A DNA stretch of 64,000 bases, from the NCBI GenBank assembly GCA_964582615.1, contig CAZORP010000003.1:2091-66090 (forward strand), in the 5' to 3' direction. Positions within the stretch are counted from its first letter, which is position 1. Every line of letters starts with the position of its first letter. Below the pieces are notes generated by a model. The model was not told the origin of the DNA. It saw only the letters and a list, made by a program, of their open reading frames with translations, and did not search any database. Below are positions 2,816 through 56,358 of the stretch, one piece after another. The stretch is from an uncultured Gammaproteobacteria bacterium. Its GTDB lineage: Bacteria > Patescibacteriota > Patescibacteriia > UBA9934. A program made the position numbers and the translations under genes.

Positions 2816-3241
2816 ATGGCAAAGAAAATCAAAGCCATTTTGAAGGTGCAGGCAATTGGTGGCGCAGCTACCCCAGCACCACCACTTGGTCCGGTACTTG
2901 GTCAGCAAGGTGTACCAATTCAACAGTTCGTATTGGAATTTAACGCCGCAACGCAAGATCGTCGCGGTGAAGTCGTTCCTGCGGTTATCACCGTGTACGA
3001 AGATCGAACATTTTCGTTCATCCTCAAAACCGCTCCTGCGTCTGAACTCATTAAAAAAGAGCTCGGAATCAAAACAGGATCCGGAAAGCCAAACCAAGAA
3101 AAGCTTGGAAAGCTTACCAAGGAACAGCTCAAGCGTGTTGCTGAAAAGAAACTTCCCGACCTCAATACCAAGGACGTTGCAAAGGCAATGAAGATCATTG
3201 CAGGAACTGCACGTCAAATGGGTGTTGATGTCGAGGTATAA
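2816..3241 (+). CDS. rplK: 50S ribosomal protein L11
   Basis: MAKKIKAILKVQAIGGAATPAPPLGPVLGQQGVPIQQF is canonical L11 N-terminal sequence, at 141 aa. A TTGACG-17-CATACT promoter-like element lies at 2717-2745. Confidence 0.95.
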   Translation: MAKKIKAILKVQAIGGAATPAPPLGPVLGQQGVPIQQFVLEFNAATQDRRGEVVPAVITVYEDRTFSFILKTAPASELIKKELGIKTGSGKPNQEKLGKLTKEQLKRVAEKKLPDLNTKDVAKAMKIIAGTARQMGVDVEV

Positions 3242-4403: not shown

Positions 4404-4416
4404 AAATCCCCATAAA

Positions 4417-4452
4417 AACAGCCTCATTACGAGGTTGTTTTTATTTTTCTCC
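4417..4452 (+). terminator. Rho-independent terminator after rplA
   Basis: AACAGCCTC-ATTAC-GAGGTTGTT is a 9-bp stem with one G-U pair, followed by TTTATTTTT. Confidence 0.6.
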
Positions 4453-9563: not shown

Positions 9564-10290
9564 GCGTGGATCAGGGATTCCGGGAACACTCACAATCCTT
9601 GAGCGCATCGCTCCCCTGATTAAACAGCACTACCTTCTCCTTGCGGGGTATTCAGCATGGTGCATGATTCCTGCGTTTGTAACTTTTTTTGGATCGTTTG
9701 CCTCGGAGAATATCCAAGGATTCCTTGAATCTTTAGCACTCATCGCCGACCTCTCACTTACCGCTTGGGTTACCGGTGCACTGACCATTATTGGCCATGC
9801 GGCACTCACCAAAGAGCCGCTTCCATCGGAAGAAGTTATCAGCTCAAAAACCCAGGAACACTACGTTCCTGCACTGCAAGGATTCCTCCTCACCACACTT
9901 CTTATACCCATAGGACTTCTACTCCTTATACTCCCCGGAATCGCCATCATGTTACTGACGATATTCTTCATTCCCGTTATCTATCTCGAACAAGGGCACA
10001 CCTGGAAAACCGCGCTTCTGCGATCAAAAGATATCGTCATGCAGGCACCCTTTTCTTTTGCAATGAGCATGCTTGGCATGACACTACTCACGGGCACTGC
10101 ATACATAGTTCTCGTGGGAATCTCCGGAATCTTGCTCACCTACGGACTTCATGTCCCATTTCTTAGCCTCCTTCAAGAGGCCGAGCAACCCGCATGGCTC
10201 TCACTGCTCCTGAACGCCCTATTCATTCCCCTCATGCCGTTTTCAGCGTTCTTTGTAACCGCTCTTTACGAAGAGGTAAAAAACCGATAA
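9532..10290 (+). CDS. Polytopic membrane protein, paralog of 8709..9563
   Basis: Similar length, hydropathy pattern and charged C-terminus (YEEVKNR versus YENRRSR). It overlaps the end of the upstream gene. Confidence 0.55.
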   Translation: MFCMKTDDLAKRGSGIPGTLTILERIAPLIKQHYLLLAGYSAWCMIPAFVTFFGSFASENIQGFLESLALIADLSLTAWVTGALTIIGHAALTKEPLPSEEVISSKTQEHYVPALQGFLLTTLLIPIGLLLLILPGIAIMLLTIFFIPVIYLEQGHTWKTALLRSKDIVMQAPFSFAMSMLGMTLLTGTAYIVLVGISGILLTYGLHVPFLSLLQEAEQPAWLSLLLNALFIPLMPFSAFFVTALYEEVKNR

Positions 10291-10298
10291 TCTCGGGC

Positions 10299-11756
10299 CA
10301 TATGGAGCTTATTCCCGTCATTGGAATTGAAACACACATTCAACTTGCAACTGCAAGCAAGCTCTTTTGTAGTTGCCCAAAAAGCGACGCACAACTTCCC
10401 AACGTTCACACGTGTCCCATTTGTCTTGGCCATCCAGGAACGCTCCCTGTAGTAAATATCGAGGCTGTACGATCGGCGCTTCGCCTTGGTCATGCCCTCA
10501 AGGGAAACCTTGCATCCGTACTTAAATTCGACAGAAAGCACTACACCTATCCCGATCTTTCAAAGTCTTACCAAATCTCACAGTACGATATTCCCATCAT
10601 GGAACACGGAAGTTTGCATTTCATGGATGACGCGGGAAATCCATGTACTGTCACTATTGAACGCCTTCATCTTGAAGAAGATGCGGGAAAGAACATTCAT
10701 GATGCTTCGGGGGTTACCTATGTTGATTTCTCGCGAGGAGGATCTCCTCTGTGTGAAATTGTCACAGGTCCAGACTTTCACAAGGCTGAACACGCTAAAC
10801 GCTACGCGCAAGAACTTAGACTTCTTGCAAGAATGCTTGGCGTATCCGAGGGTGATATGGAAAAAGGCCATCTTCGCTGTGATGTAAATATTTCTCTGCG
10901 CGAACAACTGCCAGGAGGAACCCTCGGACCACTCATGCCAAAGACTGAAATCAAAAACATCAACTCCTTCCGAGCTATAGAACGTGCAATTCTTTACGAA
11001 ATCGAACGGCAGACCGATCTCTGGAACGCAGGAACTCCACCCCTCCAATCAACAACGCGTAGCTGGAATGATGATGCAGGAGTAACCGAACTTCGACGCG
11101 AAAAAGAAACAAGCGCGGATTATCGCTACCTTCCCGAACCAGACCTTCCTGTACAGTCACTTGCTCGCCTTCGTGAAGAAGTATGCGCGCATACTTTTAA
11201 AACTCCAGAGGAAGCTCGCACCGACATGATGCGGACCTATGAAATCAGTCGAGATGACGCAGATCGTCTCCTTGAGCGAAAACCGTGGCTTGAACTCTTC
11301 CAGCAAACCGCACCACTGCTAAGCACGGATGCAAAACCGCTCCTTGCACCATGGATTCTCACCAAACTTGCAGGAATTCTTGATGAGTACAAAAAAACCG
11401 AGGAGGCGTTCCCTAAGCCATCCGAATTTGGAGAACTTCTTGAAGACATTGCAAAGCACACATGCACTCCAGCAAAGGGACGGGAAATTCTCGAATATCT
11501 CGTTCAACGTCCTGAATCACCTTACGCTCAAGCAAAATCAGCATGCGGCGTGGAAAAGCCGTCGCAGGAGCGCCTCCAAGCGACAATTCAGGAAGTTTTA
11601 CACAAACATCCAGAAGAAGTTCTTCGCTACCGCCAAGGAGAAACAAAACTTCTCGCATTCTTCCTTGGTCAGGTTATGAAGGCAACCCAAGGCAATGCTC
11701 CGGCCCAAGAAACAAAAACCATTCTTCTTCACGAGCTAACAAAAACATCCTCATAA
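10299..11756 (+). CDS. gatB: Asp-tRNA(Asn)/Glu-tRNA(Gln) amidotransferase subunit B
   Basis: MELIPVIGIETHIQLATASKLFCSCP...CPICLGHPGTLP is the GatB N-terminus. The internal Met at 10299 is used as the start. No gatA or gatC is adjacent. Confidence 0.9.
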   Translation, partial: HMELIPVIGIETHIQLATASKLFCSCPKSDAQLPNVHTCPICLGHPGTLPVVNIEAVRSALRLGHALKGNLASVLKFDRKHYTYPDLSKSYQISQYDIPIMEHGSLHFMDDAGNPCTVTIERLHLEEDAGKNIHDASGVTYVDFSRGGSPLCEIVTGPDFHKAEHAKRYAQELRLLARMLGVSEGDMEKGHLRCDVNISLREQLPGGTLGPLMPKTEIKNINSFRAIERAILYEIERQTDLWNAGTPPLQSTTRSWNDDAGVTELRREKETSADYRYLPEPDLPVQSLARLREEVCAHTFKTPEEARTDMMRTYEISRDDADRLLERKPWLELFQQTAPLLSTDAKPLLAPWILTKLAGILDEYKKTEEAFPKPSEFGELLEDIAKHTCTPAKGREILEYLVQRPESPYAQAKSACGVEKPSQERLQATIQEVLHKHPEEVLRYRQGETKLLAFFLGQVMKATQGNAPAQETKTILLHELTKTSS

Positions 11757-11770
11757 GAGGATGTTTTTAT
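11746..11770. terminator. Bidirectional hairpin terminator between gatB and the convergent gene
   Basis: CATCCTC-ATAA-GAGGATG flanked by an A-run upstream and a T-run downstream. It overlaps both stop codons. Confidence 0.55.
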
Positions 11771-51641: not shown

Positions 51642-52955
51642 CTATGGTCGCAAACGCTGAACGTCACGAGGGAAAATCGTCGCTTCTTTTACATTTGCAA
51701 GCCCAAGAAGGTTCTGCGTCAACCGTTGAAGACCCATACCAAAACCACCCTCGGGAGGAATGCCGTACTTGTGCATCATGAGGTAGTCCTCGAACTGTGC
51801 AGGATCTAATTCCTTATCTTTAATTGCCTGCACCTGGTCATCATAGCGATTCACGCGCATGCCGCCTGAAATAATCTCACTGCCAAAACCAATAAGGTCA
51901 AACGTGATAGTATTTTCAGGATTTTTTGGATCACGCAACGCATAAAATGGACGCTTCTTGGTTGGATAATCCGTAACAACAATAAAGCCACACTGATAAT
52001 GCTTTGGACCCCAAACTGTTGAAAGCCAACGCTCCCCCGCCGGAGAAAGATCCGGTTCATGCGTTTCATCAACGCCACCCTCTTCTTTGTACGCAAGAAG
52101 TGCATCTTTCAAAGAAATTCTTGGGAATCGAGTTCCAAGCGGAGGAAGTGTTACCCCAAGCAATGCAAGCTCTCGAGCACAATCGCGCTCAACCGTCGCA
52201 ACCATCTCCCGAATAGATCCCTCGGCATGCGAAACGACTTCATCCATGTCTTCAACAAAACCCATCTCAAATTCTAATTGATTAAACTCCGTGAGGTGGC
52301 GCGATGTCGCAAACTTCTCAGCGCGAAATGAGTACGAAACTCCATACACACCTTCATATACTCCCATGGTGATTTGCTTGTACAGCTGTGCCGACTGCGT
52401 AAGCGTCGCTTCGCGTCCGTAGTAGTCAACCTTAAAAAATTCCGCACCGCCTTCGCTTGCCGCGCCTGCAAGAATAGGAAACATAATTTCCGTGAAGCCC
52501 TGACGCTCCATATATGCACGGTACCCCTTTACAAGCGCCGCTTGCACTTTAAAAATCGCGCGTTGTTTTGGGTGGCGAAGTGTAACAACACGATTATCGA
52601 GGAGCGTTTCAAGCTGAACATCAATATCCGGCTTTGCAATTTCAACAGGAACCGGCTCGGTTACCGGAGAGAGAATTTCAAGCTCAGTACACTGAACTTC
52701 CGCTTCTTTAACCGAAGGATCTTTTGACTGCTTTTCTTTGACTAGCCCTTTGACTTTAATAACCGTCTCCAATTGCAATCCCTTCAATTGCTCAAGATGC
52801 GTCGCTTCCAAAACAACCTGCGCAATTCCCGTTCGATCACGAAGGAGTGCAAAACCAAAATGTTTTTTATCGCGCAAGTTTGAAAGCCAACCCGCAAGAA
52901 TCACTTCTTGACCAAGAAATTCAGGAAGTTGAGCGGCGAGTATTCTATTTTTCAT
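51642..52955 (-). CDS. aspS: Aspartyl-tRNA synthetase, archaeal/eukaryal type (class IIb)
   Basis: An OB-fold anticodon-binding N-terminus, class II motifs, and the C-terminal GGFGMGLQRL...IFPRDVQRLRP characteristic of archaeal-type AspRS. Start set at MKNRIL. Confidence 0.75.
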   Translation of the reverse strand: MKNRILAAQLPEFLGQEVILAGWLSNLRDKKHFGFALLRDRTGIAQVVLEATHLEQLKGLQLETVIKVKGLVKEKQSKDPSVKEAEVQCTELEILSPVTEPVPVEIAKPDIDVQLETLLDNRVVTLRHPKQRAIFKVQAALVKGYRAYMERQGFTEIMFPILAGAASEGGAEFFKVDYYGREATLTQSAQLYKQITMGVYEGVYGVSYSFRAEKFATSRHLTEFNQLEFEMGFVEDMDEVVSHAEGSIREMVATVERDCARELALLGVTLPPLGTRFPRISLKDALLAYKEEGGVDETHEPDLSPAGERWLSTVWGPKHYQCGFIVVTDYPTKKRPFYALRDPKNPENTITFDLIGFGSEIISGGMRVNRYDDQVQAIKDKELDPAQFEDYLMMHKYGIPPEGGFGMGLQRLTQNLLGLANVKEATIFPRDVQRLRP

Positions 52956-52971
52956 AGGTATATAAGAAAAA

Positions 52972-54273
52972 TTATGGTCGGTTTCTGTTAAGCATTCTTG
53001 CAAACGGAATCGTTTCACGAATGTGATGCACGCCGGTAATCCAACGAACCGTACGCTCGAGTCCAATGCCAAACCCACTGTGAGGCACAGATCCAAACTT
53101 TCTTGTATTCAAGTACCATTCGTATTCTTCAAGGGGATAACCTCGGTCAATAATTTCCTGACGCAACTGCTCGTAGTCTTCATTGCGCTGACTGCCTCCA
53201 ATAATCTCCCTTCCCTCTTCCGGCGCAATAAGATCAGCGCACCTTGCGCGAAGAACTCCAGCATCATCCGTGAAGCGCTTCATATAAAACGCTTTTACCG
53301 CCGCAGGATAATCCGTAATAAAGACGGGTAACTTATACTTTTCACCCAAGTAAATCTCCTCCTCTGTACTCATGTCATCAAGTGCATCTACCGCGAGTCC
53401 ATCGGCGGCAAGTTCAGCCTTTACTTCGGCATGCGTCTTGCGAATAAACGGCGTGCTCACAAGATTCTCCAAGATCGTTGTATCACGTCCAAGAATTGCT
53501 AACTCAACACGACAGTCACGCAAAACATCTCCAACAATTCTCTTCACCATGCGCTCCTGCACGTCCATGTTCATGACCTGATCGTAAAACGCCATTTCCG
53601 CATCCATCATCCAAAGTTCGCTCAGGTGATGACGAGTCTTGCTCTTTTCAGCTCGAAATACAGGACCAAAGTCGTATACTTTTCCAAAGCCCATAATTCC
53701 CGCCTCACTGTAAAGCTGGCCGGACTGCGAAAGATACATTGGCGTACCGTAGTAATCTACCGTAAAAAGTTGCGTGGTATCTTCGCAACTCGTTGGCTGA
53801 AGAACGGGCGTATCAAAGCGAATGAATCCTTCTTCATGAAAAAACTGCTCAATCGAAAAGAATACTCGATCACGAATGCGAAGAACCGCCCAAGGCGTCT
53901 GTGAACGAAGATAAAGATCTCGATTATCAAAAAGAAACTCGGGACCGTGTTCTTTTTTTCCAATAGGATATTCTTCGGTATTGATGTGTACGGGAATAAT
54001 CATCGTTCCCTGAATTTCATATCCCCCCTGTGCACGAGGCTCTTCCTTTACATATCCACGAACCTCAACCGAAGACTCAAGGGTTAAACTCTTAAGCTGA
54101 TCCCACATTTCCGGAGCAAGATCATGCGCGCTAAAAACCACTTGAACAAAACCGGAACCATCACGAAGCTGAAGGAAGTAAATTTTTCCACTTGAACGGA
54201 AGTTATATGCCCACCCCTTCAAATGCACCTCTTTTCCAACAGCATCTTTTAACTGTCGTATTGTTGTATACAT
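52972..54273 (-). CDS. asnS: Asparaginyl-tRNA synthetase
   Basis: The C-terminus VPHSGFGIGLERTVRWITGVHHIRETIPFARMLNRNRP closely matches the AsnRS terminus. 433 aa, class IIb. Confidence 0.8.
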   Translation of the reverse strand: MYTTIRQLKDAVGKEVHLKGWAYNFRSSGKIYFLQLRDGSGFVQVVFSAHDLAPEMWDQLKSLTLESSVEVRGYVKEEPRAQGGYEIQGTMIIPVHINTEEYPIGKKEHGPEFLFDNRDLYLRSQTPWAVLRIRDRVFFSIEQFFHEEGFIRFDTPVLQPTSCEDTTQLFTVDYYGTPMYLSQSGQLYSEAGIMGFGKVYDFGPVFRAEKSKTRHHLSELWMMDAEMAFYDQVMNMDVQERMVKRIVGDVLRDCRVELAILGRDTTILENLVSTPFIRKTHAEVKAELAADGLAVDALDDMSTEEEIYLGEKYKLPVFITDYPAAVKAFYMKRFTDDAGVLRARCADLIAPEEGREIIGGSQRNEDYEQLRQEIIDRGYPLEEYEWYLNTRKFGSVPHSGFGIGLERTVRWITGVHHIRETIPFARMLNRNRP

Positions 54274-54289
54274 AAAATATTGTAGAGGA

Positions 54290-54540
54290 ACGTATAAAAT
54301 AAATCACCCTTACACAACCACAACTGCAAAAGTTATGGTGATGTAAGGGCGATGCTATCGCGGTGCCACCTTACTTGTTTTAAGAAAAACCTTAAAACTT
54401 CTTCATTTTCCGCAATAACGGGCGGATCCCGTAAGGTTCTACTTGCGCAGCTAGTACGCGTTCTTCCTTAGACTTGGCGGTGTTCAAGTCGCCTCAAGCG
54501 TCTCTGAGGAAACTATAGCAACCAGAAAAAAAAGGTGCAA
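54290..54540 (-). promoter_or_regulatory. Putative T-box riboswitch leader of the asnS-aspS operon
   Basis: The minus-strand RNA contains AAGUAAGGUGGCACCGCGAUAG, matching the T-box consensus AAUUAGGGUGGNACCGCG. This is followed by a 13-bp terminator hairpin (CCCUUACAUCACC...GGUUGUGUAAGGG) plus UGAUUUAUUUUAU. An upstream AGAGA box and an AAC-containing loop are also present. Confidence 0.55.
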
Positions 54541-54606
54541 GTCCTCAAAAAAAGAGATTTATCACCAAAATTTAGCAAGAATTCGCCAAAAAATACCCTA
54601 TCGTAC

Positions 54607-54635
54607 TTGACAAATAGCGATTTTTATGCTACAGT
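54607..54635 (+). promoter_or_regulatory. Sigma70-type promoter TTGACA-17-TACAGT for the secreted repeat protein gene
   Basis: A perfect -35 at 54607-54612, a 17-nt spacer, and TACAGT at 54630-54635. This is 26 nt upstream of the ATG. Confidence 0.6.
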
Positions 54636-54660
54636 GATCCGTTAAGAATTTTAACACTCT

Positions 54661-56358
54661 ATGAAGAAAACTCTTTTTGGACTTTTTGCACTTAGCTTCT
54701 TGGCCGTGCAATCCCTCCTCCCTGTTGCAAACACCTTTGCAGCAAACTACGCGCAAGTTGGCGAGGTAAAGAACCTCACCATTCTTAGCGGAGTGTACGG
54801 AAACGACACCACCCCAACATTCACCTGGAATGCTGGAGATAACGCTTCTTGGTATTCCATCGCTATCGACGGAACCGACTGGAAGAGCGTAGGAAACACC
54901 TTTTCCTTCACCACCCCAGAACTTGATCTTGGATGGCACTCCTTCTACGTTCGCTCTCACGTTACCGACCGCATGTCTCCCAATGCAACTACGTATATCG
55001 TATTCAACATTGGAACAACGGTAACCGAAACGACGATTTCTACGGTATCTCCTACCTCCGCAGAGCTCGACGAGGAAACACGTTTCTCTGTAACCGTTTC
55101 AGGCAACACGAATGTTGACTGTGCATGGTACGTTAACGACGTTGAAATCGACGACATGACGCAGAATGGATCTACGTTCTACACAGATTTCACCTTTGAA
55201 TACGATGGTGTTTACGACTCTTACGTTGCATGTATCGATGAATACGGTAATGCATTCAAGGGAAACGAGCGCACCATCACCGTTGATGAAGACGTTGTAT
55301 CTAACAACGACGATATCTCGGTTGGCAAGGTAAGCCCAAGCTCTGCAACTGAAGATGAGGAAGTAACCTTCTCTATCGACGTTGAAGCTGATAACGATAT
55401 CGACTACTGCCATCTCTACGTTGATGGAAAGAAGGTAGCGACCATGGATGAAACCAATTCGAGTCAAACAGAATTCGAGGCAGATTACACCTTCAGCAAT
55501 GATGGCGACTACTCCGTTTACGCTGTTTGTGAGGATGAAGACGGCAACGTTGATACAGGAACGAAAATCACTGTAGACGTTGAAAGCGAAGATGATAACA
55601 ATGGCGTTATCTCTGTTGGAAAAGTAAGTCCAACAACCGCCGTTGAAGACGAATCAACAACGTTCTCCGTTGAAGTTGATGCTGACTACACTGTTGACTA
55701 CTGCGACCTCTACGTTGATGGCGACAAGGTAAAGCGTATGTCCGAGTACAGCAATGACGAATTCAAGACTTCCTACAAGTTCTCCAAGAACGGAAGCTAC
55801 ACCGCATACGCATACTGTGAAGATTCCCGCGGAAATACCGACAAGGGAACGAGCGTTACCGTGAAGGTGTACGATGAAGATGAATACGAAGGATACATGG
55901 GTGAACTTATTAAGATGGAGTGTGGATCAAACCCTGGAGTAAACGATCCTTGTAAGGCTGTGTACTACTACGGAGAGGATGGCAAGCGCCACACCTTCCC
56001 TAACGAAGCAACCTTCTACTCTTGGTACAGCGACTTCGATGATGTTATCGAGATCGACGAAGACACCATGTCTGACATTGCTCTTGGAGATAACGTTACC
56101 CTTCGCCCAGGAAGCGTTCTTGTGAAGTTCCTTACGAGCTCCAAGGTTTACGCAATTGAAGCTCCAAACGTTCTCCGCCACTACGAAACCGAGTCTCTCG
56201 CAAAGTCTGACTACGGATCCGACTGGGCAGATTACGTTATCGAACTTCCAGATTCTTTGTACGGAAACTACGAGATTGGTAAGAGCATCGACAGTTCAAG
56301 CGACTTCGATCACACCGACGCATACTTCTCGGTAGATTCTCTTGAAGATCTTTTCTAG
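54661..56358 (+). CDS. Secreted acidic protein with three about-100-aa cysteine-pair Ig-like repeats
   Basis: Signal peptide MKKTLFGLFALSFLAVQSLLPVANTFA. The repeat VSP(S/T)(S/T)A.EDE..TFS..V.AD...DYC.LYVDG.KV...E....F...Y.FS..G.Y..YA.CED..GN.D.G occurs three times, plus one divergent copy. Confidence 0.7.
   Translation: MKKTLFGLFALSFLAVQSLLPVANTFAANYAQVGEVKNLTILSGVYGNDTTPTFTWNAGDNASWYSIAIDGTDWKSVGNTFSFTTPELDLGWHSFYVRSHVTDRMSPNATTYIVFNIGTTVTETTISTVSPTSAELDEETRFSVTVSGNTNVDCAWYVNDVEIDDMTQNGSTFYTDFTFEYDGVYDSYVACIDEYGNAFKGNERTITVDEDVVSNNDDISVGKVSPSSATEDEEVTFSIDVEADNDIDYCHLYVDGKKVATMDETNSSQTEFEADYTFSNDGDYSVYAVCEDEDGNVDTGTKITVDVESEDDNNGVISVGKVSPTTAVEDESTTFSVEVDADYTVDYCDLYVDGDKVKRMSEYSNDEFKTSYKFSKNGSYTAYAYCEDSRGNTDKGTSVTVKVYDEDEYEGYMGELIKMECGSNPGVNDPCKAVYYYGEDGKRHTFPNEATFYSWYSDFDDVIEIDEDTMSDIALGDNVTLRPGSVLVKFLTSSKVYAIEAPNVLRHYETESLAKSDYGSDWADYVIELPDSLYGNYEIGKSIDSSSDFDHTDAYFSVDSLEDLF

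Follow-up and report, generated by a model that had tools for sequence, protein, structure and literature searches.

The 64-kb stretch of contig CAZORP010000003.1 analyzed here (the window, i.e., the whole of the DNA under study) carries the genes asnS and aspS, for asparaginyl- and aspartyl-tRNA synthetase, in tandem on its minus strand, and raises the question of whether the leader of this pair is a T-box riboswitch and, if so, which tRNA it reads and at which level it acts. The leader element, analyzed on the minus strand, spans positions 54505-54294 (approximately 212 nt) in the 387-nt gap between the start of asnS (54273) and a divergent gene for a PKD-domain protein (54661-56358, plus strand). 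An earlier note on this DNA, made from the letters alone, had claimed a T-box with competing antiterminator and terminator on asnS-aspS; this central claim is supported by a match to the Rfam family RF00230, by conservation among relatives and by covariation in every helix. Sequence comparison makes it very probable that the leader is a functional, tRNA-Asn-responsive T-box controlling asnS-aspS by transcription attenuation, which would presumably bind the tRNA and sense its charge.

The T-box sequence, AAGUAAGGUGGCACCGCG, is located in the asnS leader at 54376-54359 of the minus strand, as claimed earlier; its alignment to RF00230 has posterior probabilities of about 1.0, and it does not vary across the family of related leaders. 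The pattern GGTGGNACCGCG occurs once in the window, with 0.58 occurrences expected at one mismatch, so that the short pattern alone is not significant. The RF00230 covariance search proposed in the earlier note gave, under permissive filters, a significant though sub-gathering match at 54487-54342 with 45.8 bits (E = 5e-9 for the leader alone, 6.8e-7 for the whole window), the sole non-tRNA match in a permissive Rfam scan of the window. Posterior probabilities in this alignment are near 1.0 throughout the F-box, Stem III, T-box and antiterminator. At gathering thresholds (93 bits for RF00230) the whole-window Rfam scan returned three tRNAs only and no T-box; the score falls short because only 20 nt of the leader stand opposite about 90 model positions of Stem I/II. 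A sub-gathering score is not unusual in itself, because only one of 20 control leaders (unrelated environmental leaders with a UGGC-type T-box core) reaches 93 bits, and none of 20 loci of the window's own leader family does. The argument that a score below the gathering threshold marks an oddity was therefore dropped, the other 19 controls failing as well; it is the alignments that tell a full-length Stem I from a deleted one. The canonical leaders L109 (asnS, 80.8 bits) and L113 (aspS, 72 bits) retain a complete Stem I, including the AGAGA box and the distal loop, whereas L005 (40.5 bits) and L001 (35.8 bits) show a large Stem I deletion, as does the window. By every discriminator and Stem II domain feature recognizable in its sequence the leader is classified as a T-box, one that lacks the long Stem I platform.

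The genome comparison set comprised 80 loci around asnS, with metagenome loci in addition. A T-box core of the form AA[A/G]U[A/G]NGGUGGCACCGCG precedes asnS in 24 of these 80 loci and in two metagenome loci; most matches of a metagenome scan with the core belonged to other lineages, and no more than two close relatives (L085, L151) were gained from it. The core is confined to the clade with the asnS-aspS tandem, more distant lineages of the candidate phyla radiation (CPR) having neither, and it is invariant across AsnRS divergence down to approximately 74% identity. The closest AsnRS relatives (74-90% identity) are encoded in Uhrbacteria-like Patescibacteria metagenome-assembled genomes (MAGs), which places the window in a CPR bacterium. 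Many MAGs with an AsnRS 70-86% identical (L002-L004, L006-L008 and others) are titled 'uncultured Gammaproteobacteria bacterium', and L001 is labeled Kapaibacterium; the former titles look like a systematic mislabel in one assembly project.

The full secondary structure was tested on group A (the window, L001-L005 and L151; n = 7; alignment A2), the antiterminator and terminator on a 21-sequence alignment across all subgroups, and the specifier loop and U-tract were surveyed in 25 family members; groups B to E, with other 5' domains, are described further below. Controls for the group-A covariation test were slid structures (partners shifted by 1-3 columns) and 500 shuffles. In group A 96.2% of cells are in standard pairs, compared with 35-46% in the slid controls, 15 of 34 pairs have changed on both sides, and none of the 500 shuffles came up to the real alignment in pairing or in covariation score. 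For the structure, more weight attaches to the slid controls and to the number of pairs with changes on both sides than to the shuffles.

The switch itself is the best-defined part of the element. T-box and antiterminator (54343-54376; Rfam, covariation) consist of AA-GUAAGG (5' strand of helix A1), the 7-nt bulge UGGCACC (54368-54362), helix A2 (GCGAU-AGC-AUCGC) and CCUUAC (3' strand of A1), so that a AAnnnGGGUGGNACCGCG-like T-box sequence stands 5' of the expression platform. All antiterminator cells are paired in the 21 sequences (100%), one A1 pair being split into AU (11) and CG (10). Its 3' half overlaps a terminator hairpin (54304-54352; covariation), in which 54352-54332 is paired with 54324-54304 over 21 positions with one C.U mismatch around a 7-nt loop, followed directly by the U-tract UUUAUUUUAU (54294-54303, read from the sequence). 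The earlier note was right about the hairpin and its U-rich tail; the length of 13 bp that it gave has to be replaced by these 21 positions (approximately 20 bp). It had also held that T-box pairing competes with the terminator, and the antiterminator 3' strand (CCUUAC plus part of A2) is indeed the terminator 5' arm. The terminator is 90% paired in the 21 sequences, with 11 of 21 pairs compensatory, and 93% paired in group A, with six. A simple terminator scanner run over 54000-54800 found nothing, the stem being interrupted by the internal C.U mismatch. A U-rich tract follows directly after the stem in 25 of 25 family members (that of L151 was read directly from the sequence, the automatic window having landed inside its stem).

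The shared strand covaries with both of its partners: column 303 pairs with column 271 as AU (11) or CG (10) and with column 349 as GC (10) or UA (7). A T-box reading GUAAGG is accompanied by CCUUAC in the middle and GUAAG in the terminator 3' arm, and a T-box reading GUACGG by CCGUAC and GUAC. Double covariation of this kind is what one would expect of two structures that exclude each other and are both under selection. The antiterminator alone has a predicted free energy of -10.1 kcal/mol, compared with -35.1 kcal/mol for the terminator-containing fold; termination would therefore be the default, and the antiterminator would need outside stabilization, on which it depends in all T-boxes.

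Transcription is predicted to start from a sigma-70-type promoter at 54512-54540 of the minus strand, read from the sequence as a -35 box TTGCAC (54540-54535), a 17-nt spacer and an extended -10 box TGcTATAGT (54520-54512). A TGnTAnAnT box occupies a conserved spot 11-12 nt 5' of GYUUGA in the group-A relatives. A simple promoter scanner did not flag the promoter at 54540-54512, where the -35 box matches at only three of six positions. The start would lie at about 54505, 2-3 nt before Stem I, which leaves no space for a longer Stem I. The earlier note had named a start downstream of the T-box motif as an argument against its proposal; the predicted promoter is upstream of the whole element.

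Stem I (54471-54502; covariation) is an ultrashort hairpin whose basal helix GAC/GUC is separated from the upper helix GGCG/CGCC by an asymmetric loop GCUUGA / AA resembling a kink-turn (K-turn); the terminal loop ACUUGAACAC (54489-54480) has 10 nt. Both Stem I helices are 100% paired in the seven group-A sequences, with compensatory changes in four of seven pairs: an A-U pair of the basal helix becomes G-C in three sequences, and the upper helix varies to GACG/CGUC and AGCG/CGCU. The lack of any foldable Stem I with a specifier loop would likewise have spoken against a T-box according to the earlier note; a short Stem I does fold, with the specifier in its terminal loop. The long Stem I with AG bulge, distal loop and T-loop platform for the tRNA elbow is absent, approximately 90 model positions being replaced by 20 nt. 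Stem I is not canonical: it is ultrashort, has no AG bulge or distal-loop platform, and presents the codon in the terminal loop. Its base, GAC-GCUU-GA-GGCG...CGCC-AA-GUC, has a K-turn layout with covarying flanking helices, but its bulge is 4 nt long and A.A stands at 2b.2n; in group B relatives the corresponding site has the sequence of a textbook K-turn, e.g., UUGGAC-GUU-GA-GGUGG[CCGAACAA]CCACC-GA-GUCCAA in L007.

Three further readings of the leader were rejected. The AGAGA box reported earlier is present at 54505-54501, but it stands at the predicted start (+1), overlaps basal Stem I in part and reads ACAGG or ACGAG in relatives; this position and the lack of conservation rule it out as the T-box AG bulge. 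The minimum free energy (MFE) fold of the 5' end (CCUCAG/UUGAGG plus GACUUG/CAAGUC) draws on nucleotides that precede the predicted start, and L004 and L005, inspected by eye, do not preserve it. Attenuation by a leader peptide was discarded because the sole small open reading frame (ORF) in the leader (AUG AAG AAG UUU UAA) is not conserved in relatives.

Short-Stem-I T-boxes have been described as combining a K-turn, an S-turn with a 5-purine string, an F-box pseudoknot 'hub' and an RRRxG-Stem III-AA motif (PMC7583486). Stem II of the window (54432-54470; covariation) has a lower helix UAAGG/CCUUA, S-turn strands AAGAA and AGUAGAA, an upper helix and a variable tip. Both sides have changed in five of five pairs of the lower helix and three of four of the upper helix in group A; the strands AAGAA and AGUAGAA are invariant columns there, and GAA/AGUA agrees with the Rfam Stem II consensus and with the published S-turn/purine-string description (PMC7583486). 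The Stem IIA/B pseudoknot (54409-54431; covariation) comprises IIA (CGGG/CCCG), the F-box CCCGUUA (54422-54416) and the IIB loop UCCG, which pairs with a downstream CGGA. IIA is conserved and 96% paired, and the Rfam alignment matches CGUUA of the F-box; the IIB pair 103-118 occurs in group A as C-G, G-U, A-U or U-A, i.e., with compensatory and wobble changes. In L003 and L004 the IIB register appears shifted by one, as judged by eye. Stem III (54377-54398; Rfam alignment, MFE fold) is an 8-bp hairpin, GUUUUAAG-GUUUUU-CUUAAAAC, with a purine-rich 5' flank AAAAUGAAGAA and a 3' flank AA. Stem III is regarded as part of the minimal discriminator. It is present in the window, L002 and L004 and missing in four of the seven group-A sequences (L001, L003, L005 and L151: GAAnGAGnnCAAAGUAAGG, A2 columns 120-162). 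Its flanks resemble the RRRxG-Stem III-AA motif (PMC7583486).

With regard to the level of control, termination rather than sequestration of a Shine-Dalgarno (SD) sequence is the likely output. This is favored because of the conserved U-tract, the distance of the asnS AUG, 30 nt beyond the hairpin and without an SD sequence, the scarcity of SD sequences in the genome and the intrinsic terminators at gene ends. An SD-like core (GGAG, GAGG or AGGA, 3-18 nt upstream of the first ATG) precedes only four of 45 window ORFs of at least 200 aa, the starts being heuristic, and the genome appears to use SD sequences rarely. Strong A-tract/hairpin/U-tract structures occur at gene ends at 4412-4444, 11741-11768, 40789-40817 and 46092-46120, two of them directly after gatB and relA/spoT, and apparently serve as bidirectional intrinsic terminators. 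The alternative of a T-box acting mainly on translation, or at both levels, with the 3' hairpin as a sequestrator of the ribosome-loading region as in actinobacterial ileS, is unlikely. It draws on the literature, according to which all previously described ultrashort-Stem-I T-boxes are translational, and on the 3' arm, which holds an SD-resembling UAAGGGUGA; in L003-L005 and in groups D and E, moreover, the AUG comes directly after the U-tract, with the hairpin end 10-15 nt from the start codon. In the window, however, the SD-like string lies 34-41 nt upstream of a start codon that the hairpin end itself precedes by 30 nt, and an uninterrupted U-rich tract, needless for a sequestrator, is kept in all 25 members; the few SD-like cores among the long ORFs and the gene-end terminators also count against a translational output.

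The codon that the T-box would read is predicted to be AAC (Asn; 54484-54482) in the terminal loop of Stem I, with the purine A54481 directly 3' of it (54481-54484; conservation). AAC plus purine is the only triplet in a hairpin loop common to 25 of 25 members, across five differing leader architectures and in the loop contexts AYUUGAACAC, CYGAACAM, CUUAACGAC and a 7-nt CAAACAA. The stems of these hairpins covary (GGCG/CGCC, GGUGG/CCACC, CGCUG/CAGCG, CGAUGG/CCAUCG, CUGGGAG/CUUCUAG, CCAAAAG/CUUUUGG). AAC is the preferred Asn specifier. Among the AAC-containing loops noticed earlier, only that of Stem I is conserved and retained. The earlier note had left the choice between tRNA-Asn and tRNA-Asp; AAC, invariant and upstream of asnS, decides for Asn, and GAC (Asp) was rejected as specifier of the window because no group-A loop has a conserved GAC. 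The T-box bulge has UGGC in every family member, and tRNA-Asn(GUU) genes in CPR loci have G73 in 16 of 16 cases and U at position 1 in 16 of 16, with U1-A72 read by eye in those genes whose full sequence was printed. U1-A72 is the pair required by bacterial GatCAB (PMC4206432). By extension from these genes, UGGC would also match G73 of this genome's own tRNA-Asn.

The terminal loop UUGAACAC offers GAA (Glu) overlapping with AAC (Asn), and tRNA-Glu as a second inducer has been considered; such dual specificity is quite unlikely. GAAC is invariant in groups A and B, and the G73 usual in bacterial tRNA-Glu would agree with UGGC. In groups C (UUAACGA) and D/E (CAAACAA), however, GAA is missing and AAC is kept, the conserved purine comes after AAC and not after GAA, and the operon encodes AsnRS and AspRS with no Glu or Gln function. 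A two-codon Asn/Glu T-box on transamidation genes is documented (Saad 2013, as summarized in PMC4052509).

Several observations weigh against a tRNA-Asn-responsive attenuator. The RF00230 score is half of the gathering score, and the elbow-binding platform, which has been called generally required for transcriptional T-boxes, is absent. The K-turn-like element of the window has its 4-nt bulge and A.A at 2b.2n. The A2 pair beside the bulge (54361/54349) is G-C in all members of alignments A1 and A2 (ACC-GCG...CGC-CC), whereas a conserved G.U wobble at this pair has been described as part of the aminoacyl sensor or steric sieve (PMC7583486). Covariation of the 5' domain is based on only seven sequences, and for the shuffles the kinship of these sequences is a caveat; the 16 tRNA-Asn genes come from other CPR classes, the window itself holding none. 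In several relatives no gap separates the U-tract from the AUG, and there the hairpin might interfere with initiation as well. That the leader is no functional riboswitch, i.e., a decayed remnant or a plain hairpin/terminator resembling a T-box by chance, is very improbable, since the sub-gathering score, the largely missing Stem I and the operons without a T-box in L011, L016 and L025 are set against a window-wide E of 7e-7, a core invariant down to approximately 74% AsnRS identity, and compensatory changes in every helix and the pseudoknot, unlike a decaying remnant.

The tRNA-Asn-responsive T-box is envisaged to work as follows. The RNA would start at about 54505, and the short Stem I, above its K-turn-like bend, would present AAC (plus A) in the terminal loop for pairing with the anticodon GUU of tRNA-Asn; other parts of the leader would stand in for the absent elbow-binding platform, as in actinobacterial ileS T-boxes. 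If the tRNA-Asn is uncharged, its 3' GCCA would pair with UGGC of the bulge and stabilize the weak antiterminator, allowing readthrough into asnS and aspS. With charged tRNA-Asn the more stable terminator and U-tract would form, and transcription would stop at about 54294. Induction would raise both routes to Asn-tRNA-Asn: charging by AsnRS, and formation of Asp-tRNA-Asn by the non-discriminating-type AspRS followed by amidation by GatCAB.

Among known systems, the actinobacterial ileS T-boxes (Nocardia farcinica, Mycobacterium tuberculosis/smegmatis; 'class II' in TBDB) are similar to the window in their short Stem I without platform and terminal-loop specifier, have a K-turn at the Stem I base, where the window has a K-turn-like layout, and share with it a Stem II S-turn purine string, Stem III, a UGGN-ACC discriminator and a compact IIA/B pseudoknot with F-box (CCGUCA in actinobacterial ileS T-boxes, CCCGUUA in the window). 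They differ in specificity (AUC/tRNA-Ile/ileS versus AAC/tRNA-Asn/asnS in the window), host (Actinobacteria versus Patescibacteria) and output (SD sequestrator versus terminator hairpin with conserved U-tract); in addition, the window has G-C for G.U at the A2 base, and Stem III is dispensable in its close relatives. All members of the ultrashort-Stem-I class regulate ileS, according to a preprint (bioRxiv 10.1101/2023.02.28.530422). Tested against this class, the window agrees with the definition of the decoding module and departs from it in ileS/tRNA-Ile regulation and, by its likely output, in the SD sequestrator; its predicted decoding module is that of the ultrashort class. The short-Stem-I architecture, previously reported only in translational actinobacterial ileS T-boxes, thus appears here joined to a putative terminator.

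Canonical Firmicute T-boxes (RF00230; e.g., that of Bacillus subtilis tyrS and those of Firmicute asnS genes) have in common with the window the T-box sequence, antiterminator/terminator competition, the U-tract, Stem II, IIA/B and Stem III, the specifier plus purine, the match of UGGN with the discriminator base, and control of an aminoacyl-tRNA synthetase gene; the window differs in having no internal Specifier Loop, AG bulge or distal loop (the tRNA-elbow platform of canonical forms). The T-box of the Clostridium acetobutylicum transamidation operon has a Stem I that is assumed to be canonical and long. According to summaries of the work on it (Saad 2012, 2013; PMC4052509), two overlapping codons of its specifier loop are read by tRNA-Asn and tRNA-Glu; it resembles the window in its response to tRNA-Asn, its control of an extra or non-discriminating AspRS route and GAAC in the specifier region, and differs in belonging to a Firmicute and controlling aspS2-gatCAB-type genes, whereas in the window asnS is the first gene and gatB lies 42 kb off, and relatives are without GAA. 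The glyQS-type T-boxes are similar to the group B/C relatives rather than to the window, with a Stem I K-turn, a short linker and the antiterminator and no Stem II domain; glyQS leaders keep the long Stem I platform and Stem III, both of which group B/C leaders lack, while the window has Stem II and IIA/B. Published surveys place T-boxes in Firmicutes, Actinobacteria, Chloroflexi, Deinococcus-Thermus and a few delta-Proteobacteria (PMC2494555). No T-box reports in CPR, Patescibacteria, Parcubacteria or Saccharibacteria were found in the literature, the coverage of which was incomplete, so that this is weak evidence.

The leaders of relatives are built differently 5' of the switch. In groups B and C (L006 2830-2990, L007 2850-2990, L017 2860-3000, L060 2860-3000, L012 2700-2850, L021 1320-1460, L013 and L019) a K-turn hairpin with loop CYGAACAM or CUUAACGAC is followed by a purine-rich linker of approximately 20 nt and the antiterminator; Stem II, the IIA/B pseudoknot, Stem III and the platform are all absent, and the leader measures approximately 100 nt. 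RF00230 gave no match even at E<1e-3 on L007 and L012, the members tested. Groups D (L008, L009, L014, L018, L066, L085) and E (L010, L015, L020, L022) have an outer helix enclosing two hairpins in a 5' domain approximately 60-175 nt upstream of the T-box core, group E with an extra insert of approximately 110 nt. In hairpin 1 a conserved loop, [C/G]GUGACA, contains GAC (Asp), and in hairpin 2 the loop CAAACAA contains AAC (Asn); this fold was obtained independently for nine of ten sequences (the domains were folded one by one, a MAFFT alignment having mis-registered two sequences). As hairpin 1 resembles Asp-specifier loops found upstream of aspS genes elsewhere, the two hairpins may serve the asnS-aspS operon, with its two synthetases, as specifiers for Asp and Asn in tandem. 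Three close relatives (L011, L016, L025) have the asnS-aspS tandem with no T-box upstream; within the clade the riboswitch is lost in these, or was never gained.

A regular-expression survey of metagenome loci showed that a K-turn and short hairpin with the codon in the terminal loop are common among environmental UGGC-type T-boxes (L082, L083, L103, L136, L137, L146, L148, L159, L167, L184, L186, L196; further L101, L160, L174, L177, L179; L102, L162). The loops CUGACA, CCGACA, AUGACA and AGUGACGC (GAC) occur mostly upstream of AspRS genes, and CUAACA/AUAACA carry AAC elsewhere. The AGUGACGC group has no U-tract, and its leaders may be translational; many other metagenome leaders have a U-tract approximately 70 nt after the core. 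L137 and L194 show the Stem I deletion in Rfam alignments. Judged by these loops and alignments, short-Stem-I T-boxes for Asp and Asn are seemingly not rare in uncultured bacteria.

A wider interpretation is tentative and, on present evidence, doubtful: the window leader may be one of an unrecognized radiation of miniaturized transcriptional T-boxes in Patescibacteria, which would sense tRNA co-transcriptionally without a platform and whose decoding module would have been rebuilt several times at the asnS-aspS locus (Stem II/pseudoknot; K-turn hairpin plus linker; two tandem hairpins). If the tandem-hairpin form is real (L008-L010, L014, L015, L018, L020, L022, L066, L085), one riboswitch with a single UGGC could read two tRNAs. 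According to the review literature, transcriptional T-boxes generally need the long Stem I platform, and ultrashort forms are translational and belong to actinobacterial ileS. A transcriptional short-Stem-I T-box would challenge the view that the platform is needed for fast tRNA capture in transcriptional control and that a short Stem I is tolerated only in slower, reversible translational control. T-boxes are a model for RNA-RNA recognition of tRNA; the present leaders would bring them to a large sector of the bacterial tree that has hardly been studied, and offer natural minimal scaffolds, down to approximately 100 nt in relatives, for testing the needs of tRNA identity and charge reading. 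Because the Rfam gathering score misses these leaders, regulatory RNAs in reduced genomes are probably under-counted. Sensing of tRNA-Asn charge would here be linked to both Asn-tRNA-Asn routes in an organism with minimal biosynthetic capacity.

The genes downstream agree with the tandem of asnS and archaeal-type aspS described in the earlier note. asnS (52972-54273, minus strand) encodes an asparagine--tRNA ligase of 433 aa (NCBIfam NF003037, 480 bits, cutoff 414; Pfam tRNA-synt_2 plus OB fold). aspS (51642-52955, minus strand; 438 aa from the ATG at 52955) encodes an aspartate--tRNA(Asn) ligase of the archaeal/non-discriminating type (NCBIfam NF003483, 441 bits, cutoff 353); a domain scan of the window aspS found no GAD domain, and the enzyme is presumably non-discriminating. 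The asnS stop and the aspS start are 16 nt apart and the tandem is present in every T-box-bearing locus, from which we infer that aspS is co-transcribed with asnS. The genes scpA and scpB and a DD-carboxypeptidase gene come after aspS. GatB, also reported in the earlier note, is encoded at 10194-11756, 42 kb from the asnS leader.

Some further observations concern the surroundings of these genes. In L013 (2387-2902) and L019 (2387-2920) an ORF of 172-178 aa (FIDAQNV...GDGDF), NYN/LabA-like by eye, is located between the T-box terminator and asnS, and L012 has several perfect palindromes (e.g., CAGUCUGUCACAAACUGUGACAGACUG) in the same interval (2850-3000). Where CPR lineages have no T-box (Dojkabacteria, Saccharibacteria and others), asnS is preceded at a distance of approximately 30 nt to 1.6 kb by a tRNA-Asn(GUU) gene, in all cases with G73 (L038, L046, L051, L052, L055-L057, L059, L062, L063, L067, L069, L071, L077, L079). 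The tRNA genes of the window are tRNA-Leu(CAA) and two tRNA-Met(CAU), clustered at 48037-48385. A RelA/SpoT-family protein with HD, RelA_SpoT and TGS domains is encoded at 44615-46102 (plus strand) of this reduced genome.

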